64,000 nt of DNA from Chloroflexota bacterium. GTDB lineage: Bacteria > Chloroflexota > Dehalococcoidia > SM23-28-2 > RBG-16-64-32. The stretch lies in the NCBI GenBank assembly GCA_022574655.1, contig JACZRQ010000002.1, positions 5,696 to 69,695 on the forward strand, written 5' to 3'. The first letter of the stretch is position 1. Every line of letters begins with the position of its first letter. Position numbers and translations under genes: made by a program. Shown in pieces: positions 12,623 to 47,857 of this stretch. Below the pieces are notes generated by a model. It had not been told where the DNA came from. It saw only the letters and a list, made by a program, of their open reading frames with translations, and made no database searches.

Positions 12623-12652
12623 GGATCGACCTACCGACCGGTAGGTCGATCC
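12623..12652. promoter_or_regulatory. Perfect 13-bp inverted repeat overlapping an operator-like site
   Basis: GGATCGACCTACC-GACC-GGTAGGTCGATCC contains ACCGACCGGTAGGT (12633-12646) and lies between divergent genes. Confidence 0.7.
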
Positions 12653-12755
12653 TCTGAGCGTTATTATCGATGTGCTTTCGTGGCCCGTTATTTGTGTAAC
12701 ACTCTGGTAACTACGCCGGTGATAGTATTGGGTTCAGATGGAAGGTTAGTCTCCG

Positions 12756-13313
12756 ATGACGCGACTGCTCCTCAAGCTCCCCTGGTTTATCTCCGCCCCG
12801 GCTGTGGTTGCCCTCGCCTTAGTCCTGGCGGTGGGCGGCAACTACATTCTGGGCAGCTCATTCGCGCGGACGTTTCTAGACGAAACGGACCCGCTCGCTA
12901 CCGCGCCGCTTCCAGACGACGGGCAGGCCGCGCGAGACGACCTCGTGGATCCCGGCGATGACGGCGGGTCGGCCTCGGGTTCCGTTCTTGCAACGGGCGA
13001 GTTTATGGACACCACTCTGTATTCGGGAAGTGGCACAGCGAAGGTCATCCAGGCAGCCGACGGCTCGCTCGTGCTTCGGTTCGAAGACTTCTCGGTCTCT
13101 GGAGGCCCCGACTTGTTCGTTATAATGACTACCGACCCGGACGGCGGCTCATCTGACGACGGGCTGGAGATCGACCGTCTGAGGGCGACGGACGGCAACA
13201 TCAACTACGACATCCCGCCGGGAACGGACGTCTCACAGTACGAGAGCGTCATCATCTTCTGCAAGAGGTTGGGGATTACGTTTTCGGTCGCAACGCTGGA
13301 GGTGTTCGAGTGA
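12756..13313 (+). CDS. DM13 domain protein with N-terminal membrane anchor
   Basis: GSGTAKV..., LRFEDFSVSGGPDLFV and GNINYDIP.G.D.SQY.SV.IFC match the DM13 pattern. Confidence 0.85.
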   Translation: MTRLLLKLPWFISAPAVVALALVLAVGGNYILGSSFARTFLDETDPLATAPLPDDGQAARDDLVDPGDDGGSASGSVLATGEFMDTTLYSGSGTAKVIQAADGSLVLRFEDFSVSGGPDLFVIMTTDPDGGSSDDGLEIDRLRATDGNINYDIPPGTDVSQYESVIIFCKRLGITFSVATLEVFE

Positions 13314-13762
13314 GCGACGAAGCAATGAGCGCCGCGAACCCGCTCTCCCGGGCGGCGCTCGCGACGCCGGACGGACTGGATCTCGTTCTGTCGGTCGCTG
13401 GACGCCTAGTCGGAGCTGCTCTCGCTATCTATATCGCGGTCGATCAAACGTACAACCGGACAGAAGTCCTGGCGATCGGTGTGGCCGTCGTCGTCCTGGT
13501 GACGTTCGCGATCGGTGCCGTGACGAAGAGCGCTTGGTTCCCGTCGCTGGGGGCGTCGGTCCTGTTCTTCGGTGGAGCCCTGCTCTGGTTCGACACGGCT
13601 GGAGAAGCCATGGTCGTGGCCGGTACGGTTGCGGCCGTGGGCTCGCTCATCCATACACATCGCGTTGGAGGGCGGGTCGACGCGCCCGTGTCGGCCTTCT
13701 TCGTCGGCTGTGGCCTCACCACGATCGGTGTTTTGGCATTGCTGCTGGCGGTAAAGGGCTAG
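13310..13762 (+). CDS. Hypothetical integral membrane protein
   Basis: About five hydrophobic segments. GTGA overlap with the DM13 gene indicates translational coupling. Confidence 0.7.
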   Translation: MSDEAMSAANPLSRAALATPDGLDLVLSVAGRLVGAALAIYIAVDQTYNRTEVLAIGVAVVVLVTFAIGAVTKSAWFPSLGASVLFFGGALLWFDTAGEAMVVAGTVAAVGSLIHTHRVGGRVDAPVSAFFVGCGLTTIGVLALLLAVKG

Positions 13763-13777
13763 GATCTCTGTCCCCGC

Positions 13778-15058
13778 CTAGACGGCGTAGAGCCTAGTCG
13801 CCTGCTGTCGGAGTTCCGCCCGCAGGTCTGGATGAGCTACCGTGATCAGCTCGCCGATACGTTCCCTTACGGTCTTGCCCCGCAGCGTCGCGACCCCATA
13901 CTCAGTAACGACATAGTCCACGAAGGTCCGGGGCACCGTAACCACCGTGCCCTCTTCCAGCGTCGGAACGATACGTGACCTCAGTTCTCCGTCAATTGTG
14001 TGACTGGACGGCAGCACGGTGATTGAGCGGCCCCCGTGCGAGTATTGTGAGGCGATGGCGAAAGCAGTCTGCCCACCCACACCGCTCCAGACGCGCGTTC
14101 CGATCGTTTCTGATGCGACCTGGCCCGTCAGATCGACGAGCAGCGCGTTGTTCACCGCTACAAGGTTCTCCTCTCGCATAGTGAGCCGAACGTCGTTGAC
14201 GTATCCGAACTCATACAATTCGAACGTTGGGTTCCCATCGATAAGGGCCAGCTCTTCTCGGCGCATCGCTATCAAGGCACTACCGACAACCTTGCCCGGG
14301 TGCAGCGTCTTGTATCTGCCGGTGACCACACCCTTCTCGACGAGATCGGCGATCCCTCCGGTGATGATCTCGGTTTGGATGCCGAGGTCGTGCTTACCAT
14401 CCAAGTACGATGCCAGCGCCGCCGAGACTGTACCTACGCCAATCTGCAGCGTGTCCCGATCATGCACAAGCTCGGAAGCGACAAGCGCCGAGATCACTTC
14501 GGTCACTTGCTGCTCGTCGTCCCGTCGTGGCGGCAGCTGCACTCGTTTCGCCTGTCGGCGCGCCTCGACGAAGTAGTCTATCTGGGAGACATGAACAAAG
14601 TTCCGGCCCCCCGTGCGTATGAAGCCCTCCCGGACTTCGGCGATCACTGATCGAGACCGACGACAAAGCGACGGCGAGAACCAGACCCCTGGGCCAAAGC
14701 TGCAGTATCCGTGTCGATCCGGCGGAGAAACTGACACCAAATATGCATCAGGCTCTTGACCCAGACCCTCGGGAACCTCGTTCTCTTGCCACTTCCCAAC
14801 AGGGAGGTATCCCAGGTACCCGCTGTTTGCCGGCTCTCTATCGGCGGGCGTGGCAAAGAAAGTCGTGATCTGGGGTCTGATATCGTCGTCGCGTTCGAAC
14901 CAGGGGAACAACGAAACCGGGTGATCTATACGCAGTACGGCCAGCAATTCCGGTCGGTCTGACAGGGCGGAGCAGAGAGTATAGGGGGTACAAGTGTAGG
15001 GCGCGACGGCAACGCGACTGCCGGGAGCGATCGTGCCCACGGCCTCCTCGGGCGTCAC
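13778..15058 (-). CDS. Acetyl-CoA hydrolase/transferase family (4-hydroxybutyrate CoA-transferase-like)
   Basis: TLQIGVG, QTE, NNALLVDLTGQV, GVGGQ..F and VVTEYGVA.LRG motifs. Confidence 0.9.
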   Translation of the reverse strand: MTPEEAVGTIAPGSRVAVAPYTCTPYTLCSALSDRPELLAVLRIDHPVSLFPWFERDDDIRPQITTFFATPADREPANSGYLGYLPVGKWQENEVPEGLGQEPDAYLVSVSPPDRHGYCSFGPGVWFSPSLCRRSRSVIAEVREGFIRTGGRNFVHVSQIDYFVEARRQAKRVQLPPRRDDEQQVTEVISALVASELVHDRDTLQIGVGTVSAALASYLDGKHDLGIQTEIITGGIADLVEKGVVTGRYKTLHPGKVVGSALIAMRREELALIDGNPTFELYEFGYVNDVRLTMREENLVAVNNALLVDLTGQVASETIGTRVWSGVGGQTAFAIASQYSHGGRSITVLPSSHTIDGELRSRIVPTLEEGTVVTVPRTFVDYVVTEYGVATLRGKTVRERIGELITVAHPDLRAELRQQATRLYAV

Positions 15059-15150: not shown

Positions 15151-15197
15151 TTGACACCCTATCCTGAGCGAACATATATTTGTACCGTCCCGTCGGT
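15151..15197 (+). promoter_or_regulatory. Sigma70-type promoter with downstream operator-like palindrome
   Basis: TTGACA (15151-56), N18, TATATT (15175-80), then ACCGTCCCGTCGGT (15184-97), ahead of the 15223-19887 operon. Confidence 0.7.
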
Positions 15198-15222: not shown

Positions 15223-16287
15223 GTGAAGGTTGGCGTATTCCAGCTCATTCCTGGGTCCCCGGAACGGGATCACAGCCAGCTTTATCGAGAGGCGATCGAG
15301 CAAGTCGAATACGCGGAACGGCTCGGTTTCGATTCTGTTTGGCTCGGCGAGCACCATTTCACGAACTACGGAATCTGTCCATCCATCCTGACATTCGCCT
15401 CCTACATTGCCGCAAGAACAGAGCGAATTCGTATCGGTCTCGCCGTCGCCGTGCTTCCCTTCTACCAACCGCTACGCCTCGCGGAGGAAGCGGCGATGGT
15501 GGACGTACTCAGCGGCGGACGACTCGACTTCGGTGTCGGCAGAGGTTACCAGCGGGTTGAGTTCGACGGCTTTGGTGTTTCGCTGGAGGAGAGTCGCGGG
15601 CGTTTCAAAGAGACGTTGGAAATTCTACAGTTGGCTTGGAGCGACGGGCCGTTCTCCTACGACGGCGAATTTTACAAGATCGACAGCGTCGACGTGCTTC
15701 CTAAACCAATTCAGAAACCGGGCCCGCCGATTTACGCGGCAGCGGTCAGTCCTGAGACGGCGGAGGCGATGGCAGAGAAGGGCTATCCGATCATGGTCGG
15801 ACTCACTGACACCGAGAGTGCGATCGCTACCGCGCATACGAGGTATCGAGACAAAAGGCGCGAGGTATACCCGGGCGGGCTGGACCTGGAGCTGCCGGTA
15901 CTCCGCATGATCTACCTATCGCAGGACGGGAAAAGCATTCGAGCCGAAGCGGAACCCGGCTTCAAGAACTACCTCAGCAGCCTGATCACAGAGGGTAGCC
16001 CGGGGGGCAAGACCGGCGAATTTTCGCAGTCGTACGGGTTCTACGAAAAGCATTTCCCGCGGCTGGAAGGACTGACCTACGAGACGGCCGTTGAGCGGAT
16101 GCTCCTGTTCGGGGAACCGGCAGAAATCAGAGAGCGCATCAACGGACTGGAACGCGACATAGGCTTGAACTCGCTGATCTGCTGGTTTAGCTTCGGTCTA
16201 TTGCCGCATGAGAAGGTGATGCGCTCGATGGAGCTGATGGCCGAGCACGTCTTGCCGCACCTCAAGGAGGCACCTATCGCGGGTTGA
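15223..16287 (+). CDS. LLM-class flavin-dependent oxidoreductase
   Basis: GFDSVWLGEHHF, IRIGLAVAVLP and LDFGVGRGY motifs. GAGGAG RBS before GTG 15223. Confidence 0.92.
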   Translation: MKVGVFQLIPGSPERDHSQLYREAIEQVEYAERLGFDSVWLGEHHFTNYGICPSILTFASYIAARTERIRIGLAVAVLPFYQPLRLAEEAAMVDVLSGGRLDFGVGRGYQRVEFDGFGVSLEESRGRFKETLEILQLAWSDGPFSYDGEFYKIDSVDVLPKPIQKPGPPIYAAAVSPETAEAMAEKGYPIMVGLTDTESAIATAHTRYRDKRREVYPGGLDLELPVLRMIYLSQDGKSIRAEAEPGFKNYLSSLITEGSPGGKTGEFSQSYGFYEKHFPRLEGLTYETAVERMLLFGEPAEIRERINGLERDIGLNSLICWFSFGLLPHEKVMRSMELMAEHVLPHLKEAPIAG

Positions 16288-16332
16288 CAGCTCAACCTTC
16301 GGTGGAGTCCGGCAGTTGTTGCACGTGATCCG

Positions 16333-17919
16333 ATGAATACTCTGGAAGAGAACCTGCTTCGAAGGAACGTAGTAGGGGACACCCTTCGCAGGTCGGCCGC
16401 ACGGTATCCGGATAAGACCGCCATCATCTTTCGAGATAAGCACCTGACTTATCGGGAGCTTGACTCGTCGGCCAACCGATGGGCGAACGCGATGCTGGCG
16501 CTCGGGCTGAAACGAGGCGATAGGGTCGTGGTCGTCTCCGGTAACGACGAGCGATTCGTAGTCGTCTACTACGGATTGATGAAAGCCGGCTTGACGATAG
16601 TGCCCGTTAACCCTGGACTCACGGACGACGATATGCAATTCATCGTCAATGGCTCGGGTTCCAACGCGATCGTGGCGGACGATTCGTCCTTGAAGCGCCT
16701 CCTCCAGATGAAAAGCAAGCTATTCACTCTAGAGACATATTTGAGCGTCGACGCTGGTCGCGGAGATGTGCTCGGCTACGAAGAGATCTTGGCCAAAGGC
16801 GAAGAGAACGAACCGGAGGTCGTAATAGAAGACGAGGATGCCTGCCAGATCCTGTACACATCAGGCACCGAAGCGAGGCCCAAAGGGATCATCCTCAGCC
16901 ACCGGGCGATCATGGCCAACTGCAACAACGTCGTGATCGAATTCCCGTTCAGAGTTCAGGATATCGGCTGCCTAGTCTTGCCGCTGCATCACTCTGGTGG
17001 CCTCGACGTATTCCTCTCGCCTCTCATCTATGTGGGTGCGACCATGGTCGTTCTCGGGGGCTTCGATCCGCAGGAGGTGCTAGAAACGATCGAACGTCAC
17101 AAAGTCACCACGTTCTGGGGACTGCCGATCTTCTACCGGGCGATGATGGACGTTCCGGACTTCGACAAGTACGATCTATCGTCTCTCAGGCTATGCACTT
17201 ACCATCTGGCGCCAATTACTACTAATCTGCTGAAAGAAGCGATCGAGAAGTTCGGCTGCGAATTCGGCCTCACCTTCGGTCTTACCGAAATGGGTCCGGT
17301 CACGACCGTATTCCCTCCAGATGCGCAATTCGAGAAGTTTGGCTCGATCGGACGTCCCATCCTCTCGGTCGACCTCAAGATCGTTGACGGAGAGGATAAC
17401 GAAGTCCCGCGAGGCACGGTCGGTGAGATCGTCTATAGGGCGCCTTGCACGATGGACGGGTATCTGGGGCTTGAGGAGAAGAACGTCGAGACGTTCCGAG
17501 GTGGCTGGCTCCACAGTGGCGATCTAGCCTACATGGATGAGGACGGGTACGTGTTCTTCGTCGACCGGAGCAAGGACATCGTCAAGAGTGGCGGTGAGAA
17601 CGTCTCGTCTAGAGAGGTGGAGACCGTCCTTCTGGCCCATAGAGACGTCGAAGACGTAGCGGTCATCGGACTGCCCCACCCGCGCTGGGGAGAAGCGGTC
17701 ACGGCGGTCGTAACGGCGCGCCCGCAAGCGACAATAGACGAGCAAGAGCTGATCCGATATTCTAAGGAGAGACTGGCTGGGTTCAAGGTACCGAAGCAAG
17801 TACTCGTGCTGGATGAGTTGCCGAAGACCGCCACGGGAAAGATCCAGAAGTCCGTAATCCGCCAACGCTTGATAGAAATGAGCAAGCGCGACGCAAAGAC
17901 CCGAGACCGTGACGGCTGA
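16333..17919 (+). CDS. AMP-binding acyl-CoA synthetase / CoA ligase
   Basis: YTSGTEARPKG, GLTE, GWLHSGDL, KSGGENV and LPKTATGKI motifs. Confidence 0.93.
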   Translation: MNTLEENLLRRNVVGDTLRRSAARYPDKTAIIFRDKHLTYRELDSSANRWANAMLALGLKRGDRVVVVSGNDERFVVVYYGLMKAGLTIVPVNPGLTDDDMQFIVNGSGSNAIVADDSSLKRLLQMKSKLFTLETYLSVDAGRGDVLGYEEILAKGEENEPEVVIEDEDACQILYTSGTEARPKGIILSHRAIMANCNNVVIEFPFRVQDIGCLVLPLHHSGGLDVFLSPLIYVGATMVVLGGFDPQEVLETIERHKVTTFWGLPIFYRAMMDVPDFDKYDLSSLRLCTYHLAPITTNLLKEAIEKFGCEFGLTFGLTEMGPVTTVFPPDAQFEKFGSIGRPILSVDLKIVDGEDNEVPRGTVGEIVYRAPCTMDGYLGLEEKNVETFRGGWLHSGDLAYMDEDGYVFFVDRSKDIVKSGGENVSSREVETVLLAHRDVEDVAVIGLPHPRWGEAVTAVVTARPQATIDEQELIRYSKERLAGFKVPKQVLVLDELPKTATGKIQKSVIRQRLIEMSKRDAKTRDRDG

Positions 17920-18028
17920 GTCAGGCTAGAACCCTATATTGCCGCGTGTTGTATTGTAGATTGGCGTAGTAGCGCACGTGCGGTGGTCTTGCTCGCTTAA
18001 ACGGTAGGCGAGCGCAGGAGGATGTCAG

Positions 18029-18373
18029 GTGATTAAATATGTCGCCCTCTGGAAGCTTGGAGAGGGTGTGTCGCCCGAGGAGTTCGAGGCGGAATATCGA
18101 ACCCACGTCGAAGCGGCCGCGAAGAGGATGCCCGGCCTCAGGAAGTACCAAATCGGGAGAGTGCTTTCGGCCAGGGGGTTTGACGACAGCTACTACCGAA
18201 TCGCAGAGCTGTACTTCGATGACGTTGAGTCGCTCAAGAGTGCGATGAATTACCTCACGAGCCTATCGGCCAGCGATCCGGCGAACCCGTCCGGTGCTCG
18301 AGACCTCATGGCCTCGACACTCGCGCTTATCTGCGACGAAGAAACCATCGGCCTACCCAATCAGACGGACTAA
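18029..18373 (+). CDS. EthD family protein
   Basis: MIKYVALW...EEF..Y..H....KRMPGLRKY...YYRIAELYFDDVESL pattern. Confidence 0.8.
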   Translation: MIKYVALWKLGEGVSPEEFEAEYRTHVEAAAKRMPGLRKYQIGRVLSARGFDDSYYRIAELYFDDVESLKSAMNYLTSLSASDPANPSGARDLMASTLALICDEETIGLPNQTD

Positions 18374-18402
18374 GCTGAACTAGCGAAGGATCGACGATAG
18401 AT

Positions 18403-19107
18403 ATGACAAGACGCAAAAGAGCACCAAGGAACTCAGCTACATCAAGAAAGGAACAAATCCTCGATGTAGCGACCAAGCTATTCCACAAGAAGGGATACAC
18501 CGGAGCTTCAGTTCAGAACCTGGCGGACGCCGTCGGAATAAGCAAGGCTACGCTCTACTACCACATCGGGAGCAAGGAACGTCTCTTGTACGAGATCCAT
18601 GAGAGATTCCTCAACGAAGGATTCGAGCTCCTTGAGCCGTTGGAGCAGAGTCCCGATTCTCCCACCAACAAGCTAATCAACTACTTCATTGGTCAATGTC
18701 AACTAACTCACCGACGCGGCCTTGAGATGGCCGTCGCGATGGCGGAGCTGGATCGTCTGTCAACGAGTCGTCGCAAGACGATGGTCGCGAAGCGAGATCA
18801 GTACCTCGACGTCCTCGTCCGCACGCTCCAGGCAGGGGTCGATAGCGGAGAATTCAGGCCGATCGACCCTCGGCTGGGGGCGCTCTGTGTCATGGGCATG
18901 GTCAACTGGCTGCATCGATGGTACCAACGAGACGGTGCGTTGTCCCCAGAAGACCTCGGGAGATTCATGGCCTCCATCGTTCTGAGCGGGTTGTCCGCTG
19001 AACCGACCGCCGCCAACCTGGCAGCCCTCGACGGCTTCGCTGCGCCAAGTGCTATCAGCGACGGCGAGCCTCAGGCCGTCTCCGCGCGAGCGCCTAGCAC
19101 CAGGTAA
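18403..19107 (+). CDS. TetR/AcrR family transcriptional regulator
   Basis: HTH ILDVATKLFHKKGY...ADAVGISKATLYYHIGSKE and C-terminal GMVNWLHRWY..DG.LS (KstR2/PaaR-like). Confidence 0.93.
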   Translation: MTRRKRAPRNSATSRKEQILDVATKLFHKKGYTGASVQNLADAVGISKATLYYHIGSKERLLYEIHERFLNEGFELLEPLEQSPDSPTNKLINYFIGQCQLTHRRGLEMAVAMAELDRLSTSRRKTMVAKRDQYLDVLVRTLQAGVDSGEFRPIDPRLGALCVMGMVNWLHRWYQRDGALSPEDLGRFMASIVLSGLSAEPTAANLAALDGFAAPSAISDGEPQAVSARAPSTR

Positions 19108-19119
19108 CGAGGAGGAGCT

Positions 19120-19887
19120 ATGCCCGGACGTTTGGAAGACAAAGTTGCCCTGATCACCGGGACGGGTGGAGCCCAGGGACGGGTTGCCGTTCAGCTGTTC
19201 ACACGAGAAGGTGCAAAGGTCGTTGGCACCGACATCAGCGGTCGACGTGGTGAAGAGACGTTGGAGCTGGTGCGAGGAGAAGGCCACGACTCAGTCTTTT
19301 ATCGATGTGATCTGGCGGAAGAGACCGAGATCGAGCAACTCGTCGCGTTCGCGCTCGAGTCTTATGGTGGACTGGACATCGTCTACAACAACGCCGCCAG
19401 AGCCAAGTTCGCGCCCTTCGCCGAGCTGACGATGGAAGACTGGCAGTTCACGATCCGAAACGAGATGGACGTCATATTCTTGCTCTGCAAGCGAACGGTA
19501 CCGGTCCTCATCGAGCGAGGAGGCGGATCAATAATCAACGTAGCGTCCATCGGGGGCGTGGTGGGCATGCCGGGGCTTGGGAACGTGGCGCACGGCGCGG
19601 CCAAAGCAGGGGTCATTGGACTAACGAAGAATCTCGCTGTCGAAGTTCGGGACAAAGGGATCAGAGTCAACGCCATCGCTCCCGGCATTATCGACACCCC
19701 TGGGGCGGCGCAGGCGGCAGGCTGGGACGATCCCGAGATCTGGGCTGCACTTACGCTGAAGCCATTGACGCACAAGGCCGGACAGCCAGAAGACGTCGTC
19801 AACTGCGCACTCTACCTGGCGTCCGACGAGTCGAGCTACGTCACAGGCTCGGTCTTTACGATCGACGATGGCTGGGCCGCCTGGTAG
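19120..19887 (+). CDS. SDR oxidoreductase
   Basis: TGTGGAQG and NNAA motifs. HGAAK at the YxxxK position. Confidence 0.88.
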   Translation: MPGRLEDKVALITGTGGAQGRVAVQLFTREGAKVVGTDISGRRGEETLELVRGEGHDSVFYRCDLAEETEIEQLVAFALESYGGLDIVYNNAARAKFAPFAELTMEDWQFTIRNEMDVIFLLCKRTVPVLIERGGGSIINVASIGGVVGMPGLGNVAHGAAKAGVIGLTKNLAVEVRDKGIRVNAIAPGIIDTPGAAQAAGWDDPEIWAALTLKPLTHKAGQPEDVVNCALYLASDESSYVTGSVFTIDDGWAAW

Positions 19888-19921: not shown

Positions 19922-20806
19922 CTAGACCTTCGGCGCAACCTCACGTGCGAACGTCTCCATGCGCTCCAAGGTTCTCTCGATCGTGCGCCCAGTGAACGTC
20001 ACGAGTACATGCGCCGCCCCAGCGGCTTGGTATTCGCGCAGGTTCTCGATTACTTCAGCCGGCTCAGCACGGGTTAGCGAGTCGTCGGCTAGAACGCTGA
20101 GCGATATCGCGTTGCTGTCACGCCCGTACTCCTTCGCATAGATCCTGACCTTCGCCAGACCCTCGGCCAGAATCTCAGGAGTCCCCGACGCGTGCCAGCA
20201 GTTCGCGTACTTAGCCGCCCTTCGTAACGCGCGATCGCTCCAGCCGCCGATCCAGACCGAAGGTGTCGGCTTCTGCAGCGGCTTCGGGTAGAAGCCCACA
20301 TCGCTCAAGGAGTAGAAGCGCCCCTTGAACTCTGGATTGTCCTGGGTCCAGCAGCTCAAAATAATCTCCAGACCCTCATCTAACCGATCCCCCCTATGGT
20401 CAAATGGGACATTCAGAGCTTCGAATTCTTCCCGCAACCAGCCGGAGCCGACACCGAAGATCAATCGTCCGTTTGACAGGACGTCCAACGTCGCCAGGCT
20501 CTTCGCCGTGAGTCCAGGATTGCGCATCGGCAGCGCCAGGACTGAGGTGCCAAGAGCGATCCGCTCCGTCGCCGCGGCCACGAATGTCAAGAGCGATATC
20601 GCCTCGAGAAACGGCAGATCAGGCGGAAACGGGAACTCGCCGGAAGGGTTCCCGGGGTAGCGGCTAGTGTGGTGCCGTGGCAGTATTACGTGCTCCGCGG
20701 CGAACAGCGAGTGAAAGCCAAGGTCCTCGGCTCGTCGGGAGAACGCTAGATTGGCCTCCCGCGTCGCCAGATGTCCCGCTTGCAACAGGTGAATCCCGAA
20801 TTCCAC
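19922..20806 (-). CDS. LLM-class oxidoreductase, F420-dependent-like subgroup
   Basis: AEDLGFHSLFAAEHV, IALGTSVL, LDVLSNGRLIFGVGSGW and VWIGG motifs. Confidence 0.85.
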   Translation of the reverse strand: MEFGIHLLQAGHLATREANLAFSRRAEDLGFHSLFAAEHVILPRHHTSRYPGNPSGEFPFPPDLPFLEAISLLTFVAAATERIALGTSVLALPMRNPGLTAKSLATLDVLSNGRLIFGVGSGWLREEFEALNVPFDHRGDRLDEGLEIILSCWTQDNPEFKGRFYSLSDVGFYPKPLQKPTPSVWIGGWSDRALRRAAKYANCWHASGTPEILAEGLAKVRIYAKEYGRDSNAISLSVLADDSLTRAEPAEVIENLREYQAAGAAHVLVTFTGRTIERTLERMETFAREVAPKV

Positions 20807-20904
20807 TTAAGACCATCCTAGAGCTGCCATCGGCCTGCTCTGGGCAACGCATTGTCCTCCGTGAGACGCTCGGACAGCCAGTGTTGGAGTCACGGCGGTC
20901 TCGA

Positions 20905-21684: not shown

Positions 21685-21741
21685 CTCAACTACCTACCCT
21701 GATACATTATGCAGCAGTCGATGTCCAAAAAGGAGGCTCTG

Positions 21742-35665: not shown

Positions 35666-35693
35666 GCGGATGAGCGACCGCAGAGGCGCGACA

Positions 35694-38806: not shown

Positions 38807-38939
38807 CAGAGACGTGCTGGCGCGGATTCAGCAAGGGTGACCAGTCCTACTAAGGAGCGGGTTCATAGCCTGTCCCGCCCTTCGAGTTAAGCTGGTCTAA
38901 CCACCCGGGTTCTTTACTGGGAACAGGAGACTTACCCCA

Positions 38940-40187
38940 TTGCGTCGGCCAGCGCTCAGCGGCCCAGAATCCAACATCTGGAAGTATTACACCTTCCAGT
39001 TTCTTCTGAATTTTCAGCTCTGGTGGCCGATCTGGGTCATCTATCTCACGGAGCAACGCGGCCTATCGCTCGGCCAGGTGACTCTCATCGATGTCCCGTT
39101 CTGGGCGACTATCGTCTTCCTTCAGATCCCATCGGCCGCTGTCGCCGACCGTTGGGGACGGAAGCCGACCCTGATCGCAGCCGGCCTGTCCATGGCGGTA
39201 GCCGTAACCCTATTCGGCGTCGCGTCCTCGTTCTGGCTGCTTCTGCTCTCATATCTGATCTGGGGCATTTCGTTCTCGCTGCTCTTCGGCGCTGAGTCGG
39301 CGTTCATCTTCGATTCACTCAAGTCGATGGGCCGGGAGAACGAGTACTCAAAAATATACGGTCGCGCTTGGGGCCTAGCAACGGCGGCGATGCTTGCTGG
39401 CACACTCATCGGCGCGCCGCTCGCAGACTCTACGAACCTCAGTGTCCCGATCATCGTCAGTGGAGGCATCGCCGGGCTGGCTGCCCTGTTCGCGATCACG
39501 CTTTCCGAGCCTGAACCCATGGATCGAAGCCGGAAAACCATCTCATACGCCAAGATCATTGGGGACAGCGCGCAGCTTGTTCGAACGCGACCAGCAGTGC
39601 GATACTCGATCCTCTTCTATGGTCTCATTACGGTGGGAAGCATCGCTCCGGTCATTCTCTTCCAACCGTTCCTTATAGAGCACGACGTTGACATCGGGGA
39701 TGTGGGCTTCTGGCAAACGCCAACTCGCGTGGCCGGAATCGTCGGCGCGGTCGCCGCACACCGACTCATTCTCGCGGCGGGCGAGCGGGCGACGTTCTAT
39801 GCCATGCCTGTCGTCCTGATCTTCTCGTACTTGATGCTCGGGCTTTGGGATTCACTGTATGCCCAGATAGCATTTCCTTTGATGAACTTCGTCGTCATCC
39901 TCTCGCAACCGACGGTGACCGACTACCTGAACCGCCGCGTGCCCACGGAACAGCGGGCGACCGTCATCTCACTCACGAACTTGGCGCGCTCGGCCGTACT
40001 GATCCTCGCGGCGCCGCTTCTGGGGCTGCTCGCGGACGAGGCGTCGCTCGCCACATCGTTCATAGTCGCCGGTGCGCTGGTCGCCGGCTTCGGGCTGCCG
40101 CTGATGGCGCTCTGGTCGCCATTCATATCGCCTCACAGAGGCGCCGAGACGATCGAGGCCGAGCCAGCGAGCAAGGGGGGCGACTAA
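38940..40187 (+). CDS. MFS transporter
   Basis: About twelve TM segments, ADRWGRK motif A and SGAESA-like segment. Confidence 0.88.
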   Translation: MRRPALSGPESNIWKYYTFQFLLNFQLWWPIWVIYLTEQRGLSLGQVTLIDVPFWATIVFLQIPSAAVADRWGRKPTLIAAGLSMAVAVTLFGVASSFWLLLLSYLIWGISFSLLFGAESAFIFDSLKSMGRENEYSKIYGRAWGLATAAMLAGTLIGAPLADSTNLSVPIIVSGGIAGLAALFAITLSEPEPMDRSRKTISYAKIIGDSAQLVRTRPAVRYSILFYGLITVGSIAPVILFQPFLIEHDVDIGDVGFWQTPTRVAGIVGAVAAHRLILAAGERATFYAMPVVLIFSYLMLGLWDSLYAQIAFPLMNFVVILSQPTVTDYLNRRVPTEQRATVISLTNLARSAVLILAAPLLGLLADEASLATSFIVAGALVAGFGLPLMALWSPFISPHRGAETIEAEPASKGGD

Positions 40188-41014
40188 GTCGATGGCCCGA
40201 CGGGCGGCCAGGAGACCCGCCTCGGCTCTCGCCAGCCTTGGGCCGCATCGAGCGCAGTGGCGAACCAGACACCGTCGCGTCCCTTCATGTGTTCGATCAG
40301 CCGCTCGAGCACTCCGATCCGCGAACGGCGCCCGATCAACTGAGGATGTAGCGTGATCAAGAACATGCCACCTTCTTCGTAGGCCTTGTCGAACTCCGTC
40401 TGCCACAGGGAGAGAATGTCATCGGGAGGGAGCATTACGTTCGACCCACCGAAGAAGTAGGCGCTGAACGGAAAATCATCGAGTTCCCAGCTCACTGGCA
40501 GCTGGATGAGGGGCTCCGGCATGCCCTCGACATCGATCAAGTACGGGTTGTCGTCACCCATCAGGCTACTGTCGTAAACAAATCCCTCTTCAAGCAAAAG
40601 TTTCGCCGTATGCAGGTTGTGGTCCCAAGGCACCACACGCGCGCCACGCGGCCTCGAACCTGTCACTTCCTCAAGCGCCTTCAACGAGCGTCGGATCAGG
40701 CCTCGCTCCTCATCAACCGACATTCCGATCACTGACTCACAGTTGAATCCCTCGTATGCGACCTCCTGACCAAGCTCCATCGCTCGCTCGACCTCTGCCC
40801 TGTGATTCAGCGCGACCCACGCGGGGACAAAGAAAGTACCTGGGACCTTGTAGCTGTCGAGCAAATTCATCACCCGCTCAAACCCGGCCCTCGCGCCGTA
40901 CGCTCCACGCTCCATCGAGCCGGGCGAATCCATCTCGAGTGCACCGAACCACATCGCTTCGGCATCGAAGTTCCAGGTGAGTACGACGGCGCACCGTTTT
41001 CCGTTCGACCACAT
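40184..41014 (-). CDS. Polysaccharide deacetylase / PuuE-like (CE4) protein with altered metal ligands
   Basis: TWNFDAE, GTFFVP, YDSSLMGDD.PY, LPVSWELDD and LHPQLIG motifs. Confidence 0.85.
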   Translation of the reverse strand: MWSNGKRCAVVLTWNFDAEAMWFGALEMDSPGSMERGAYGARAGFERVMNLLDSYKVPGTFFVPAWVALNHRAEVERAMELGQEVAYEGFNCESVIGMSVDEERGLIRRSLKALEEVTGSRPRGARVVPWDHNLHTAKLLLEEGFVYDSSLMGDDNPYLIDVEGMPEPLIQLPVSWELDDFPFSAYFFGGSNVMLPPDDILSLWQTEFDKAYEEGGMFLITLHPQLIGRRSRIGVLERLIEHMKGRDGVWFATALDAAQGWREPRRVSWPPVGPST

Positions 41015-41117: not shown

Positions 41118-41161
41118 CCCGACCGGTTGGTATTGACGCTTCAACGATACTGAACTATCTT
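41118..41161 (+). promoter_or_regulatory. Sigma70 promoter with adjacent operator-like site
   Basis: CCCGACCGGTTGGT (41118-31) directly before TTGACG (41133-38), N17, TATCTT (41156-61). Confidence 0.65.
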
Positions 41162-41283: not shown

Positions 41284-42051
41284 ATGAGACTCAAGGATCG
41301 CGTAGCCGTCATCACCGGAGGTGGATCTGGTATCGGCAAAGCGACGGCACTTCTCTTTGCCAAAGAGGGCGCTAAGATCGCGATCTTCGAGATCGCCGAA
41401 GACAACGCACGCGAGGCAGTGAAGGAGGTTGAGGCGGAAGGTGGCACCGCCATCTACGCGCTTGCCAACGTGGCCAGCGAGTCAGAGGTGGAGGTGGGAG
41501 TCCAGAAAGTGATCGACACGTTCGGCAGGATCGACATCCTATTCAACAACGCAGGGGCTCATCGCTATCCGCACACCAGTACACCGATCGACGAGCTACC
41601 CGAGTCCGAGTGGGATCGAATCGTCGACAGCCACCTGAAGGGCTGCTTTCTCTGCTCCAAGCATGCGGTGCGTCAAATGAAGAAGCAAAAGAGCGGTGTC
41701 ATCGTCAACATCGCCTCGATCTCTGGCCTGGTCGGGATCCCTTACGTGCACAACTACGGAGCCGCCAAGCACGGCATCATCGGTCTAACCAAAGAGCTAG
41801 CCGTCGAACTCGCAGACTTCGGGATTCGTGCGAACGCGGTTGCGCCTGCCAGCGTCGATACTCCGATGCGCTGGCATGGTGGCAAGGGCATCTCTGACGA
41901 AGTACGGGCGGAGATCAGCCGCACAATTCCCTTGAAGCGGATCGCTCAGCCGGAAGAGATAGCGCAGGGAGTTCTCTACTTAGCGTCTGACGAATCGTCG
42001 TTCGTCACGGGCGCCGTGCTCCCTATCGATGGCGGATACGTCGCCCAGTAG
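41284..42051 (+). CDS. SDR oxidoreductase
   Basis: TGGGSGIG, NNAG and YGAAK motifs. Confidence 0.92.
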   Translation: MRLKDRVAVITGGGSGIGKATALLFAKEGAKIAIFEIAEDNAREAVKEVEAEGGTAIYALANVASESEVEVGVQKVIDTFGRIDILFNNAGAHRYPHTSTPIDELPESEWDRIVDSHLKGCFLCSKHAVRQMKKQKSGVIVNIASISGLVGIPYVHNYGAAKHGIIGLTKELAVELADFGIRANAVAPASVDTPMRWHGGKGISDEVRAEISRTIPLKRIAQPEEIAQGVLYLASDESSFVTGAVLPIDGGYVAQ

Positions 42052-42064
42052 ACGTAGGGACGAC

Positions 42065-44749
42065 ATGGCACAATCCCCCGGCGATGGCAACGTCACAGGC
42101 CTAGTAGCTCCGCTGGCGGACGTTGGAGAAGCGGACGCGACCGCCGTTGGAGGCAAAGCCTTTGGACTGAGCAGGTTGGCCCAAGGCGCGTTCGAAGTAC
42201 CGTCAGCGTTTTGCATTAGTTGCGCAGCTTACCGGCAGTTCATGGAGCAGACTGGGCTCGAGAACCTGATCAACGCCAGGAAAGATCGTATCGCGTCAGC
42301 GGACATCAAGGACGCGCGCAAATTGAGTGCCGAGCTGACTGACCACCTCATGCAATCAACGATGCCGGCCGATTTGGAAGCGGAGATCGTTGCGTCTTAC
42401 AAGCGGCTGGTCGGCTCGGACATCTCTAAGCACGTTGCCGTGCGCTCGTCGCCGGCTGTGAGTCTCCCTGGTCAATATCACACCGCTCTGAACGTCGCTG
42501 GAGAGGACCACGTTCTGGACGCGGTGAAAGATGTCTGGGCATCGTACTGGACCCCTGAGGCGATCGTCACCAGGGGTGCGTTGAGTGTCCCTCACACGCC
42601 TGTACAATTCGGGGTCGTCGTTCAGGAGATGATTGATGCGGAGGTCGCGGGGATTCTGTTCACGGCTGAGATGCCCAGCGGCGATGAGAGCAAGATCGTG
42701 ATCGAAGCGGTGACTGGGCTCGCCGAGACTCTTGCGCTAGGTAGACGTGATCCCGATAGGTTCGTTGTGGACAAGGCGAGTCTCGATGTGATTGAGCGGA
42801 TCGCCGCACCTGCTGGGGGTTCGAACAAGACCGAAGCGGTAACGGAAACACTTAGTGACCAACTGATATCGGAGCTCTGCCGCATTGGTTTGTCAGTCGA
42901 AAAGAACTTCCAACATCCGGTGGACATGGAGTGGGCCTATCGGGAGGGGCGCTTCTACACGCTTCAGGCACGAGCTATCCGAGGCTTGGCAGACGAGGAC
43001 GTCATCGAGCCCTGCCGCGATCACTTCCAATACAATCCCCGTCCGCCGCGTTCCGACGCGGTGTGGAGCCGGTATTACGGAGACAACTTCCTGCGCGGCA
43101 GATTCACACCCGCGGGATATTCCTTCGTGATCTGGTGGCCAGAAGCGATGGAAACGATCATCGACCGGACACGGGGATACAAGGAGCTAGAGAACGTTCC
43201 TCTGTTTCGCTACTATCGCGGCCGGGCGTACACGAACACCGACTACCTGAAGCTCCGTGTCCAGTACGAACCACCGTTTCTGCGGACGCAAGAGTCGATG
43301 AATCACTTCCCATCCTGGGAGCGGGAAGAGATCGCCTCCATGCCGTTCCGGTGGTGGAAGAGGCTATGGGGGGAGTTGCGGGTCCTGGTGCTGCGCCCGA
43401 ACCAGAGCCTGTTCAGGAACTACCACTTCTTCGAGCGCGAGAGCGCAGACATCCTCGATAAGATCCGAACCGAACTCGACCCTATCGACCTGAACGCGTC
43501 GTTGGAGGAATTGCTCCGCTATCGCGATGTGCTTCGGAGGCTGATCGCCCGCCACGAGCTAGGATACGTCGGATGGATCTTCCACTACAAGTTGATGATC
43601 GATGCCCTCCTGACGATGCTGCTGAAGGAGTGGTACGGGCCGGGTCACGAGGAGCTGTTCGCCAGCCTCCAGGCAGGCGTCCCGGACAACATCAGCGTGA
43701 AGACAGCCGGGGCGATGTGGGAGGTCTCTCGCGTCGCCGCCGGGGATCCCGTCGTGGCTCGTGCGTTTGAGCGTATAGACACGAAGGATCTCTTAGACGA
43801 GCTGAAAGGTGTGCCGCAAGCCGAGACGTTCTTGAACGCGCTAAGTGGCTTCCTGGACGAGTACGGGTACAGAAGGGAAGCGCTGACGATAGAGCCTCCT
43901 TCGTGGGAGGAAGATCCGACGCAGGTCATCCGTATCTTGAAAGCGATAGTGAAACTGCCGGACGACCGTTCACCAACCTCCGAGCTCGAGGCACAGATTC
44001 AGCGAAGATTGGAAGCCACCGCCAAGGTCGAAAGGGCTCTATCCTCGCAACGCTGGGGTTGGTTCAAGAAACGGGCCTTTCGGGCAGTCCAAAAGTACAG
44101 CCTCGCCTACCTTGCATGTCGCGAGAATCAGCGCAAAGTCGCGGACCCATGTATCTCACGCTATCGGCGGATGTTCCTGGCCTTCGGTGACCGGCTCGTC
44201 CCGCGGGGTGCGCTATCCGATAGGGTAGACGTGTTCTTCCTATCGGAGCCGGAGATTCTTGAGGCGGTGATGGACGATGGCCGAGCCGAATACTGCAAGA
44301 ACAAGGTTCAGTCACGCAAGGCCACTTTCCCGAGTTACGAGGCGCTCCCGCCGATGTTCGTTCGCGGGAAATCGGAGGAGCTACTGCCCGAGGCCGTGGC
44401 GAGCAGGCATGCTACGGACGGTCAGTTGGTCCTGGAAGGCACTCCCGCGAGCCCTGGCGTGGCATCAGGACCGGCCCGGATCCTGCACCGCCTCGACGAG
44501 GTAGATTCTCTCACCCTAGGTGATGTGCTCGTCGCAAGCGCGATCGATCCTGGCTGGACCAGCGCGTTCCCCGTAATCGGCGCGGTCATCACCGAGATTG
44601 GCGGCGCCCTTTCTCATGGCGCCATCATGGCCCGGGAGTTTGGCGTGCCTGCCGTGATCGGAGTGGAGGGCGCACTGACGGCGTTAAAGGATGGCCAATC
44701 CGTCACAGTTGACGGTCTGAATGGGACAGTTACCGTCGACGAAAGCTAA
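42065..44749 (+). CDS. Three-domain dikinase, rifampicin-phosphotransferase-like architecture (ATP-grasp, substrate domain, His swivel)
   Basis: GGKA, AVRSS, VVVQEMI, DMEWA..YTLQAR and C-terminal GGALSHGAIMAREFGVPAV. Confidence 0.9.
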   Translation: MAQSPGDGNVTGLVAPLADVGEADATAVGGKAFGLSRLAQGAFEVPSAFCISCAAYRQFMEQTGLENLINARKDRIASADIKDARKLSAELTDHLMQSTMPADLEAEIVASYKRLVGSDISKHVAVRSSPAVSLPGQYHTALNVAGEDHVLDAVKDVWASYWTPEAIVTRGALSVPHTPVQFGVVVQEMIDAEVAGILFTAEMPSGDESKIVIEAVTGLAETLALGRRDPDRFVVDKASLDVIERIAAPAGGSNKTEAVTETLSDQLISELCRIGLSVEKNFQHPVDMEWAYREGRFYTLQARAIRGLADEDVIEPCRDHFQYNPRPPRSDAVWSRYYGDNFLRGRFTPAGYSFVIWWPEAMETIIDRTRGYKELENVPLFRYYRGRAYTNTDYLKLRVQYEPPFLRTQESMNHFPSWEREEIASMPFRWWKRLWGELRVLVLRPNQSLFRNYHFFERESADILDKIRTELDPIDLNASLEELLRYRDVLRRLIARHELGYVGWIFHYKLMIDALLTMLLKEWYGPGHEELFASLQAGVPDNISVKTAGAMWEVSRVAAGDPVVARAFERIDTKDLLDELKGVPQAETFLNALSGFLDEYGYRREALTIEPPSWEEDPTQVIRILKAIVKLPDDRSPTSELEAQIQRRLEATAKVERALSSQRWGWFKKRAFRAVQKYSLAYLACRENQRKVADPCISRYRRMFLAFGDRLVPRGALSDRVDVFFLSEPEILEAVMDDGRAEYCKNKVQSRKATFPSYEALPPMFVRGKSEELLPEAVASRHATDGQLVLEGTPASPGVASGPARILHRLDEVDSLTLGDVLVASAIDPGWTSAFPVIGAVITEIGGALSHGAIMAREFGVPAVIGVEGALTALKDGQSVTVDGLNGTVTVDES

Positions 44750-45426
44750 GCCAGAAAGCTCTGTAGAGCGCCGCGCCAATCTGAGAAGTCCTCAAAGGCG
44801 ATGTCCGCGCCCGCTTCCTTTAACTGATCGACTGACCACTTTCCCGTGGCCACCGCAATCGACGTTGCGCCGTTGTTCTTAGCGGCTTTCACGTCCGAGG
44901 GTGTGTCGCCGACCATAACCACGGTCTTCGGATCCGCCTCAGCGGCGAGTCGCTTCATCGCCATGCCCACTAACACGCTTCGATCCTCGTCGTCGTCGCC
45001 GAACGCCCCATCGGCAAAGTGGCTGGAGTCGACGCCGCAGTGCTCGATCTTAAGCATGGCAGCTTGCCTGGAGTTGCCCGTCACTAGACCTAGTGTGGCG
45101 CCCGCCTCGGCCAGACCTGTGAGCAACTCCTCAATTCCGGGAGTACGCTTCGCCTCAGCCGTTGCCAGGCAACCGGGAAGAACCTCATGGTATCGCTGTC
45201 TGAATTGACGAGTCAGGTCCTCGACCTCGCCAGAAACGCCATGACGATCAAGAGCCTCGTGCAATATGATCGTATCCGTGCGGCCTGCATACTGCAGGTC
45301 TATACCGGCGAAGGCATCCTCGACCCCGAAGAGATCGGCGAACGCCTGCTTGAAGGCTCGTGCCGTGGCGTCGCCGCTCCACAACACCGTGTTGTCAAGA
45401 TCGAAAAGGATTAGTTTCTTAGCCAC
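44746..45426 (-). CDS. HAD-family phosphatase
   Basis: FDLDNT (DxD), VTGN and VGDTPSD motifs. Stop overlaps the dikinase stop. Confidence 0.9.
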   Translation of the reverse strand: MAKKLILFDLDNTVLWSGDATARAFKQAFADLFGVEDAFAGIDLQYAGRTDTIILHEALDRHGVSGEVEDLTRQFRQRYHEVLPGCLATAEAKRTPGIEELLTGLAEAGATLGLVTGNSRQAAMLKIEHCGVDSSHFADGAFGDDDEDRSVLVGMAMKRLAAEADPKTVVMVGDTPSDVKAAKNNGATSIAVATGKWSVDQLKEAGADIAFEDFSDWRGALQSFLA

Positions 45427-45540
45427 ACTTACCAGCCGGGCTGGCCGGACGATCTCGCCAACCCCGACGCCATAATGTAGCAGTCCAAGTTCTGGGTCAA
45501 GACGCGCACACGATCATTAGGGGGGCTCCGTTCCGACCGA

Positions 45541-45828
45541 CTAGTCAGCGCTCTGTCGCGCTGCCGACTGTGGGCCGACATCTGCCGGACTCGGCACCGG
45601 CTGCCGTCCGCGCACGACCAGAATCAAGAGCCACATCAGACCGATGAGAGACAATACGATCGAGCTGGCGTAGAGTTCTTCCCCGACCAGCCCAACGACG
45701 ATAATAGAGGTGCCGATAAAACTGACGGTGGAGGTCAGGCGCGGCACATAAGCGTTCTTGTTCAGCAGCGTTGGGATCAGAGACGGAAGGAAGATCAGGT
45801 TACCCACTGTAATCAGGGCATCCCACAT
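45541..45828 (-). CDS. Small three-helix membrane protein (PQ-loop/SemiSWEET-like topology)
   Basis: MWDALITVGNLIFLPSLIPTLL... with three hydrophobic segments. AAGGAGG RBS. Confidence 0.6.
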   Translation of the reverse strand: MWDALITVGNLIFLPSLIPTLLNKNAYVPRLTSTVSFIGTSIIVVGLVGEELYASSIVLSLIGLMWLLILVVRGRQPVPSPADVGPQSAARQSAD

Positions 45829-45960
45829 GATTCCGTCCTCCTTTCGAAATGGCGGCCGTTTCGGCCGCTCTGTCCACGTAACTTTCTCGACGGTGCTCGG
45901 GCAGGTCGAGACGCATTGTACTCTCCAGCGCCTCAAGTTGGAGCCGTGACCGTAACTGAC

Positions 45961-47633
45961 TCACTTTTCAGCGCGAATGATGCCGCTGTCGAGGAGAACT
46001 TTCAGCTCGTCATGTACAGTGCTTGCCGACACGCTCAGATTCGCGGCAACCTTTTTGAGCAATTGCGAGACCTCTATCCGGCCGTCAGCCTCACGCACCA
46101 CGTCTAAGGCAACAGAAGAAAGAGTAGTCAGTCGATTCTGATGGTAGACGCTGACGAGAGCCTGAGCGACGAGCTTCTCTGGATCCACGTATAGGTAACT
46201 TTTGAGCGGGTAGTTGGCCACCAATCGTGCGTCGGCTGACGGTATCGCTGACGAGTGCGGGTCTGCAAGGCTGTCGAATACCTCCGCAATGGCGACGTCA
46301 GTCCATTCGCTGTCGTTCAAAGGGACGCGGTCTCCTTCCATCGCGAACCGGTCGAAGACTTCACGAGCGGATTCGCTGATAGAGTCAGCCTCGCTCGATC
46401 GTTGCTCTAGTTTGTCGTGAAGCAGATAGCTGCCGCCAGATAACACCTTGATGAAGGTCTGCTTATGCGAACTCTCGCGGATTGCGTAGCTCAGGTTGTG
46501 GGTCTTCCAGAAATAGGAACGCATATCGCGGTGGGCGTTGTAGAAGTAGAGAAGCAGACGGATCATATGATCATAGAACGACTTGAGGGTGTCCTGGTAG
46601 GCGCCTTGCAAGACCTCTTCTCGAGCACCAGGCGTAGCCCCCAGAAGACTATTGATGCTACAAGCCGCTAGCACGGCGGTCCGCATCGCGTTTGAGACGC
46701 CGTAAGACCACAGCGGATCTACGAAGACAGCGGCGTCGCCAGCCCGGAAGTACCCGGGTCCACAGTAGTCTTTGAACGTGAAGGAATAGTCACGAATCAC
46801 CCTCACGGGCTCTATCCGGCGAGCATCGGAGACCAAGGCGGCGACGTGTGGACAAAGCGCGATCATGGCGTCTAGGAAGGCCTCACTCCCCATCTGTTGA
46901 AGTTGCTGGAAGCTTCGATGGGAGACGACGGCCCCAACACTACTGTAGTGCTCGTTTTGCGGAATGACCCAGAACCACCCGTGCTCAAAAGCGACGACAA
47001 TCTGATTCCCCCGAGGCTCATCGGGGTCCCAGTTCGGCACGGCGACGGCGGGGGAATAATAGGAGAACACCGCGATGTTTTTGAAGTCCTCGTTGTACTG
47101 CAAGCTATGAGACCGTTCCAGAGCGAGACTGTCCTGACCAGTGGCGATCAGGGTGTAGGCGGACTTGACCTCGCCTTCGGTCCCGTCAGGCCGAGAGTAG
47201 GCGACTCCAACGACTCGGCCGTCCGCGTGAAGCAGACGCGTGACCCGATGGTTTTGATAGACGTTGGACCCCCGTCGGATGGCGTTTGACAGAAGCACTC
47301 GGCGCGGCGCACATGGTAGGAGTAGGTCGGGTTGCCGGGTACTTCAGCAAAGCGCCAATGCCAGGGCCGTTCCCGGTTCTTGCCCCAGATGAAGCTGCCC
47401 CCGTACTTCCGCACAAAGCGACGACTTTCGACCTCTTCCCTCGCGCCGAGACGCTGGAGAATTGTTGGGGCGATTCCTAGTAACGACTCGCCCACGTGGT
47501 AGCGTGGAAAAGTTTCTTTTTCCAGCAAGACCACATCGCGACCGGCAATTGCCAATAGAGCCGCCGCTGTCGATCCAGCCGGGCCACCACCGATGACCAC
47601 AACGTCACACGTTTCGGGGACGGATTCGTTCAC
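45961..47633 (-). pseudogene. Frameshifted FAD-dependent halogenase-family gene
   Basis: 5' frame: GGGPAGS, FPRYHVGESL, RKYGG. 3' frame: FEHGWFWVIP (WxWxIP), YSF, AGDAAVFVDPLWSYGV. Frames switch at ~47298. Confidence 0.82.
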
Positions 47634-47801
47634 TGGCTCACACCTTCAGGCTATCTGGTCTCGAGGAGCGGTCGACAGGGGTAGTCGAATTCTAACCGAC
47701 GACATCTTAACTCGGATGTAGAATCATTCGCCAGCGAGCGTATCGCTCGGTACCAGTAGACCCCGGTGCCGCTCGATCTTGATGACAGATTCGCGCGTCT
47801 A

Positions 47802-47857
47802 TTGACAGGATAGCAAATTTGGAATATCTTTCGACCGACGCATACCGAACGGTCGGT
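47802..47857 (+). promoter_or_regulatory. Consensus sigma70 promoter plus operator-like palindrome
   Basis: TTGACA (47802-07), N17, TATCTT (47825-30), then ACCGAACGGTCGGT (47844-57). Confidence 0.72.

Follow-up and report, generated by a model that had tools for sequence, protein, structure and literature searches.

A PaaR/PfmR-type operator, probably that of a locally encoded TetR repressor, recurs across a 35-kb catabolic island of an uncultured Dehalococcoidia genome

Does a palindrome that recurs over some 35 kb of an uncultured Dehalococcoidia genome mark the operators of a single TetR repressor encoded among them, and if so what might that repressor sense? The window considered here, 64,000 nucleotides of contig JACZRQ010000002.1 of a Chloroflexota bacterium (assembly GCA_022574655.1), had been described in a sequence-only reading as carrying ten copies of ACCGA-N4-TCGGT, and the TetR protein encoded at 18403 had been proposed as the PaaR-type, acyl-coenzyme A (acyl-CoA)-responsive repressor of the operons beside them. 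Our analysis indicates that the palindrome is a real operator, in what is largely an ordinary local regulon without a new regulatory principle. Operator identity, homology to the Thermus regulator PfmR and conservation all support the proposed repressor, and we consider it likely, from these comparisons, that a TetR repressor of the PaaR/PfmR type uses the palindrome as its operator, that this repressor is the 18403 protein, and that through it an acyl-CoA would control the many operons of the island.

The consensus of the copies is a perfect 14-base palindrome, ACCGACCGGTCGGT, commonly flanked as ct-...-cg, and all ten of the 14-mers previously listed are present in the window. Intergenic and coding DNA were separated with a gene model whose start codons had been corrected by homology to a relative (GTG 15223 for a monooxygenase and ATG 34068 for a thiolase); an open reading frame (ORF) beginning at 15151, which would have made the copy at 15184 coding, was rejected, as homology and a ribosome-binding site put the start at GTG 15223. 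Within the 9,802 bp of intergenic DNA (59% GC) the motif occurs twice exactly, seven times with at most one mismatch and 16 times with at most two, against expectations of 0.009, 0.41 and 5.0, respectively, and not one of 1000 dinucleotide shuffles attained any of these counts. The 54,121 bp of coding DNA holds no exact match, none with one mismatch and 27 with up to two, the last being about the chance level, so that the motif is indeed commoner between genes than the background predicts. For the window as a whole, matches with at most two mismatches stand at chance level (43 against 40.3 expected); exact matches number two against 0.17 expected, and those with at most one mismatch seven against 2.84, a count reached in 2 of 100 shuffles. 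Moreover, the four spacer positions, which had been left free when the copies were chosen, are non-random, with C at position 6 in nine of the ten sites. An unbiased scan of the window's intergenic DNA for all 5-mer palindromes with spacers of 0-8 placed registers of this motif first, second, fourth and fifth, the top count of nine lying at about the 99th percentile of shuffle maxima.

When sites from relatives were used to train a weight matrix, its scores showed that the ten copies are not of equal standing. Eight (12633, 15184, 27388, 27611, 31603, 33942, 41118 and 47844) score 16-22 and, as had been claimed, are intergenic, 15184 included. The remaining two, 33997 and 45536, score below 9, are not conserved in a relative, G019, and are probably chance matches, 45536 being the copy already described as overlapping a stop codon; a site at 27415 (score 12.4) had been missed and is added here. 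Genome-wide (2.65 Mb, 156 contigs), 15 matches reach a score of 16. This contig holds eight of them, all intergenic; the seven elsewhere comprise five inside genes and two between genes, on contigs C153 and C89; the C153 site is 50 nt upstream of another luciferase-like monooxygenase gene, directly past a TTGACA-17-TTTAAT promoter.

The sites are also conserved. G019 is a Dehalococcoidia relative represented by a single 2.55-Mb contig (95% complete), and its TetR, 73% identical, was the only close orthologue found when genome contigs were scanned with the 18403 protein; among metagenome contigs the same scan gave none above 36% identity over most of the length, and a few short fragments at 39-47%. 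The G019 island is syntenic (60-90% protein identity), and six of the eight strong window sites (15184, 27388, 27611, 31603, 33942 and 41118) have orthologous counterparts there that stand as conserved islands amid diverged flanks. Nine of the 18 G019 sites with at most two mismatches fall in the syntenic 54 kb, which is 2% of that genome. Two loci found via a protein database, L168 and L170, encode TetRs 57% identical to that of the window and carry sites in divergent promoters beside the same families, namely CoA-transferase, DUF7065, Rph-like dikinase, acyl-CoA dehydrogenase (ACAD) and ATP-binding cassette (ABC) importer. The operon that encodes the TetR has a site in front of it in the window and likewise in G019, L168/L169 and L170. 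In G006, whose TetR is 36% identical, three sites lie within 5 kb of the TetR gene, one of them perfect. More distant homologues, at 154 loci, show a 4.6-fold enrichment of related boxes over the 350 bp that lie upstream of their TetR genes. Site counts at up to one mismatch in 40 relatives stay near control and do not separate genomes with the TetR from those without it, clustering alone being informative.

By sequence, the nearest characterised homologue of the 18403 protein is PfmR of Thermus thermophilus. The closest solved structure is 3VPR (E 3e-29, 35% identity over 184 amino acids, residues 13-198), which is that of PfmR (PMC10636190). Across the helix-turn-helix (HTH) 20 of 32 residues are identical, and the recognition helices, SKATLYYHIGSKE in the 18403 protein and SKAALYHHFGSKE in PfmR, are near-identical. 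An uncharacterised TetR (3DCF) comes second, and AibR (5K7F, E 7e-23) and KstR2 (4W97, E 4e-19) are the next-best solved homologues of named function. The 18403 protein is the sole PfmR-like TetR in this assembly, as is its orthologue in G019; the three other TetR hits here are all weak (E 9e-8 to 1e-5), two of them confined to the HTH region. Since an operator, 15184, lies at the promoter of the TetR's own operon, the protein would be autoregulated.

How the sites stand to promoters bears on what a bound protein would do. Several copies had been said to lie beside TTGAC[AG] promoters, and those at 15151, 27469(-), 41133 and 47802 were recovered by our scan, while those at 31657(-) and 33991(-) were recognised by eye. 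Over 36.6 kb, sites adjoin each of the four top-scoring sigma-70-like matches (15151-15180, 27469-27440(-), 27631-27659 and 47802-47830), and the promoters at 41133-41161 and, for a HAD gene, at 45500-45472(-) likewise adjoin site positions. Operators begin 4-14 nt past the -10 at 15184, 27415/27388 and 47844, and by eye also at 31603, 33942 and C153, and they end 1-6 nt before the -35 at 27611 and 41118. Positions right after a -10 or abutting a -35 amount to repressor geometry.

The consensus t-ACCGACCGGTCGGT-cg is a dual overlapping inverted repeat built from ACCG/CGGT tetramers, and we propose that the 18403 protein binds it as one dimer or, perhaps, as two dimers offset from each other. 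It would thereby cover the transcription start (15184, 47844, 27415/27388, 31603 and 33942) or abut the -35 (27611 and 41118), shutting at least eight promoter regions, including that of its own operon, together with the monooxygenase promoter on C153. A CoA thioester of the transported pathway substrate would then release the repressor, by analogy with PaaR (phenylacetyl-CoA), KstR2 and AibR. KstR2 senses HIP-CoA and AibR isovaleryl-CoA. The releasing thioester could be made by the regulon's own ligase (16333), as had been suggested, or by the CoA-transferase (13778); the ligase is thus one of two options, but the neighbour conserved across lineages is the CoA-transferase instead.

Several points weigh against this proposal. 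The weight matrix was seeded with the window consensus, so its scores are not fully independent, and each promoter was called by consensus match only. The 18403 protein shares no more than about 35% identity with PfmR, and strict orthology is uncertain. Two strong sites, 12633 and 47844, have no G019 counterpart, and some five units of the island, 19922-22056 and 36165-40187 among them, are without a site. The HAD gene has a strong operator in G019 (1500382, score 21.1), with which the window aligns a stretch, ACCAGCCGGGCTGGCCGGA, that appears interrupted and degenerate; the promoter's -35 and -10 are retained in both genomes, and the gene may have escaped control in the window. Finally, this metagenome-assembled genome (MAG) is 76.9% complete and a further regulator could be missing from it, although the 95%-complete G019 shows none.

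This last point would allow a real operator to belong to a different regulator, encoded elsewhere or in the unassembled 23%, with the 18403 TetR controlling something else. TetR operators are not assignable from sequence alone, and in Thermus another regulator, SbtR, is able to occupy sites overlapping the boxes of PfmR (PMC7022988). We nevertheless regard this as unlikely, given that the motif is the operator of the closest characterised relatives of the 18403 TetR, that a site stands before the TetR's own operon here, in G019 and at the L168/L169 and L170 loci, that sites track the TetR gene in G006 and in distant homologues, and that G019, in its one contig, has a single PfmR-like TetR, the others in this genome being weak.

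Somewhat more doubtful again is the idea that the TetR is an activator or dual regulator, or that it responds to something other than a CoA thioester, for instance a free acid or a phosphorylated product of the dikinases. The work on PfmR names no effector for it (PMC7022988), and the island does encode unusual phosphotransfer enzymes. Sites 27611, 41118 and L168:3139 overlap a -35 or stand immediately upstream of one, a position that activators also use, but most sites overlap the start site or sit downstream of the -10, as a repressor's would. KstR2 and AibR, moreover, are repressors with CoA thioesters as ligands. PaaR and PfmR, the other characterised close relatives, are repressors too, and the known ligand is again a CoA thioester (PMC9493321, PMC2770484).

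That the palindrome is a dispersed repeat or structural element (a repetitive extragenic palindrome, a terminator hairpin or a recombination site) we hold to be very improbable. Site 12633 does lie inside a 30-bp perfect palindrome, and a 26-bp palindrome with a related core occurs on C89 and in G019, but the copies share only 14-18 bp, with unrelated flanks, and keep fixed offsets from -35 and -10 elements upstream of genes, not at 3' ends; a 7-bp arm without a loop cannot make a useful hairpin, and this very sequence has been proven to be an operator elsewhere (PMC2770484). Chance matches arising from GC-rich composition and picking by eye are scarcely credible, whatever the whole-window count, the relatives' genome-wide counts (no higher than with a reversed-pattern control) and the two chance-like copies among the ten might suggest, as the intergenic counts were unreached in 1000 shuffles, the matches cluster (eight of 15 genome-wide on one contig, nine of 18 in the syntenic region of G019) and orthologous positions are conserved amid diverged flanks, unselected inner bases included.

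The table sets out the sites and genes of the island, with the 18403 TetR as the probable repressor.

Table. Putative operators and principal genes of the island. Positions are those of the window; scores are from the weight matrix; promoters are consensus matches.
Feature	Position	Strand	Score	Promoter, genes and assignment	Counterparts in relatives
Operator ACCGACCGGTAGGT	12633-12646, within 30-bp perfect palindrome 12623-12652		20.6	Between divergent SnoaL genes (11336-12474, -) and DM13/unknown genes (12756-13762, +)	None in G019
Acetyl-CoA hydrolase/transferase-family CoA-transferase	13778-15058	-		Pfam/NCBIfam; divergent from TetR operon	Also divergent from TetR in L168 and L170
Operator ACCGTCCCGTCGGT	15184-15197		16.7	Starts 4 nt past -10 of 15151-15180 (TTGACA-18-TATATT, 11/12), 25 nt before GTG 15223; common to TetR operon and CoA-transferase gene	Orthologous sites G019 1467363, L170 9368
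Putatively autoregulated operon	15223-19887	+		Luciferase-like monooxygenase, acyl-CoA synthetase (16333-17919), EthD, TetR, short-chain dehydrogenase/reductase (SDR) (Pfam/NCBIfam); gaps between genes 12-109 nt	Order syntenic in G019, 73-90% amino acid identity
PfmR/PaaR-like TetR gene	18403-19107	+		TetR_N PF00440 (E 1.6e-13); TetR_C_24 PF17932 (E 2.4e-26)	
ABC-transporter operon (PotBC-like importer)	Substrate-binding protein 26020-27243; permease; ATPase; SDR 22085-22912	-			
Tandem operators ACCGACGAGTCGGT and, weaker, TCCTACCGTTCGGT	27388-27401 and 27415-27428		21.2 and 12.4	Downstream of promoter 27469-27440(-) (TTGACA-18-TAGAAT, 11/12) of ABC-transporter operon	G019 ortholog 1484460; G019 keeps just a half-site of the second
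Operator GCCAACCGGTCGGT	27611-27624		19.4	Ends 6 nt before -35 of promoter 27631-27659; DUF7065 gene 27727-28707(+)	G019 1474967 (score 22.3); DUF7065 gene relocated there, site moved along
Operator ACCGACCGCTCGAT	31603-31616		16.6	Downstream of TTGACA 31662-31657(-); upstream of (-) operon of DUF7065 (30546-31529) and ATP-grasp-less phosphoenolpyruvate (PEP)-utilizer protein (28749-30524)	G019 1485695, conserved island; analogous L170:15613 precedes DUF7065-dikinase-DUF7065 operon
Operator ACCGACCGTTCGGA	33942-33955		16.9	Divergent region between ACAD and enoyl-CoA hydratase (ECH) (33853 to 31828, -) and thiolase-DUF35-MaoC (34068-36152, +)	G019 ortholog 1488875; L170:19616 and L168:3139 likewise adjoin ACAD genes
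Weak match ACCGACTCGTCGAT	33997-34010		<9		Not conserved in G019
Operator CCCGACCGGTTGGT	41118-41131		16.2	Ends 1 nt before -35 of promoter 41133-41161, serving SDR 41284-42051 and full-length PPDK/Rph-like dikinase 42029-44749 (+); divergent from deacetylase-like gene 40184-41014(-)	Weaker in G019: TCCGGCCGGCCGGT (score 14.3), same position, adjoins TTGACG
Apparently decayed operator	45431-45449			Downstream of HAD promoter 45500-45472(-); HAD gene 44746-45426(-)	Strong in G019
Weak match ACCGACTAGTCAGC	45536-45549		6.8	Overlaps stop codon of ORF 45541-45936(-)	
Operator ACCGAACGGTCGGT	47844-47857		22.0	Exact ACCGA-N4-TCGGT match; 14 nt past -10 of promoter 47802-47830 (TTGACA-17-TATCTT) of PD40 beta-propeller gene 47927-48997(+); divergent from frameshifted halogenase-like gene (45961-47633, -)	None in G019, PD40 gene absent there

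A few of these positions deserve comment. The 30-bp palindrome around 12633 reads GGATCGACCTACCG-AC-CGGTAGGTCGATCC, with a centre that corresponds to the ACCG-ry-CGGT register of the REPSA consensus for PfmR, not to the centre of the 14-mer, an offset that would fit the binding of two offset dimers; having no G019 counterpart, this site appears to be lineage-specific. The copy at 45536 was considered as the operator of the HAD gene and rejected, the G019 HAD operator aligning to a different, decayed stretch at about 45431-45449. Outside the listed range, a moderate match, CGACCGACCGGAAGTTCG (score 12.6), occupies 9279-9292 within the first 24 nt of a predicted inositol-monophosphatase ORF (8496-9302, -) and adjoins a divergent region with an alcohol dehydrogenase (ADH) gene; should the inositol-monophosphatase start codon have been set too early, this match could represent a weak site on the outskirts of the regulon. 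No operator sites were found past 47857 in the window. G019 has two extra strong sites, C1:1459112 and 1461408 (L009:9112 and 11408), with none at the matching window places, one upstream of the orthologue of the window monooxygenase 1403-2569 and the other between GFO/IDH/MocA and zinc-ADH genes, so the left border of the regulon would differ between the two genomes. The intergenic match on C89 belongs to a 26-bp perfect palindrome, GTACATACTGACCGGTCAGTATGTAC (C89:12626-12651), between an SDR gene and dnaE, the core of which, ACTGACCGGTCAGT, recurs in G019 at C1:1182152; this may be another regulator's site or a distant member of the present regulon.

What, then, would the repressor control? 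Between 11.3 and 49 kb there are about 18 transcription units, some 13 of them with a site in front. The genes concerned encode the CoA-transferase, the acyl-CoA synthetase, luciferase-like monooxygenases and the PotBC-like ABC importer, together with two DUF7065 proteins and their PEP-utilizing dikinase-like partners, beta-oxidation-type enzymes (ACAD, ECH, thiolase and MaoC), the SDR-dikinase pair and a flavin halogenase-like protein. Family searches gave generic assignments only. A phenylacetate pathway was rejected: domain searches of the window proteins found no paa gene, and PF05138 (PaaA/PaaC) had no match in this genome, G019 or G006, while control genomes did match. The absence of PaaA/PaaC homologues means that this is not a phenylacetate regulon, and by the same pathway logic the effector would not be phenylacetyl-CoA; by analogy with the related repressors it would be some other acyl-CoA. 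We tentatively suggest, as a possibility short of an expectation, that in this Dehalococcoidia lineage a catabolic pathway, CoA-dependent and so far uncharacterised, may have recruited a PaaR/PfmR-type repressor together with its operator, the DUF7065-dikinase modules, the ABC importer and ACAD/ECH being the conserved core of the pathway.

DUF7065 (Rv3169-family) genes invariably form pairs with genes for PEP-utilizing dikinase-like proteins (27727-31529 and 41284-44749 in the window, and in L168 and L170). One of the dikinase-like partners is full-length and one is without the PPDK_N ATP-grasp domain, and such pairs adjoin a PfmR-like TetR in four of four lineages examined. The halogenase-like gene falls into two frames that overlap, namely 47148-47633, which has a GxGxxG N-terminus and covers positions 1-95 of the Trp_halogenase model, and 45961-47298, which covers positions 164-409. 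Its G019 counterpart is an intact ORF of 560 amino acids; the split copy is a pseudogene by frameshift or else an error of MAG assembly. At the right edge of the catabolic island is a transposase fragment (49908-50663, -; HTH_32, HTH_21, rve_3), followed by a Tad-pilus/extracytoplasmic function (ECF) sigma locus.

These results provide a well-supported regulatory map for a 35-kb island of an uncultured Dehalococcoidia genome. Through guilt by association, DUF7065, the split dikinase-like enzymes, the halogenase-like flavoprotein and the DM13 and SnoaL proteins would be tied to a CoA-thioester pathway with a dedicated importer. If the suggested recruitment is true, the operator map defines the membership of a new pathway and the TetR offers a ready-made biosensor for its acyl-CoA intermediate. 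In addition, one TetR-operator pairing would extend across four phyla, Pseudomonadota, Deinococcota and Actinomycetota from the cited papers and Chloroflexota here.

Among known systems, KstR2 (4W97) and AibR (5K7F) share a TetR_C_24-type ligand domain with the 18403 protein but have different operators and pathways. The KstR2 operator is AnCAAGnnCTTGnT. Corynebacterium glutamicum PaaR, to which the sequence-only reading had attributed ACCGA-n4-TCGGT, is said to recognise ACTNACCGNNCGNNCGGTNAGT, a motif that the window consensus would fit. The PaaR proteins of C. glutamicum and Streptomyces pristinaespiralis are both TetR repressors of CoA-dependent aromatic acid catabolism, and their targets are paa clusters, of which there are none here. 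For S. pristinaespiralis the putative box is AACGA-N4-TCGGT (PMC10933834), with the same architecture as ACCGA-N4-TCGGT.

The operator of Burkholderia cenocepacia PaaR (BCAL0210), ACCGACCGGTCGGT(T) with a variant ACCAACCGGTCGGTT, is letter for letter the window consensus, a likeness at the level of the operator and not from protein comparison, and is the exact documented match to PaaR. In B. cenocepacia it forms a dual overlapping inverted repeat, likened to that of QacR, in core promoters (PMC2770484, PMC9493321); its mutation abolishes repression (PMC2770484) and phenylacetyl-CoA releases the protein (PMC9493321). As in that system, one local TetR would serve several promoters. Unlike it, the present system has no paaABCDE or PaaA/PaaC homologue, in this genome or its relatives, and the regulon is larger (about nine promoters over 35 kb) and of other content. 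The Burkholderia inverted repeat lies between -35 and -10, whereas most sites here lie at +1 or beyond it, or else immediately upstream of the -35.

A further parallel is with T. thermophilus HB8 PfmR (TTHB023), whose predicted box, 5'-TACCGACCGNTNGGTN-3' (PMC7022988), is matched by the window consensus at every specified position. PfmR sites span +1, and its regulon comprises an operon that is autoregulated and holds genes for ACAD, SDR, MaoC, an acyl-CoA ligase and a phosphotransferase, and a thiolase gene elsewhere (PMC7022988). The island resembles this in having a putatively autoregulated operon (site 15184) with a ligase and an SDR, and ACAD, MaoC, thiolase and SDR genes under other sites. 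PfmR, however, belongs to a different phylum, controls three or four promoters and is encoded by the first gene of its operon, whereas the TetR here is the fourth, and what the island adds to the content of the PfmR regulon is an ABC importer, the DUF7065/dikinase modules and the halogenase-like gene.

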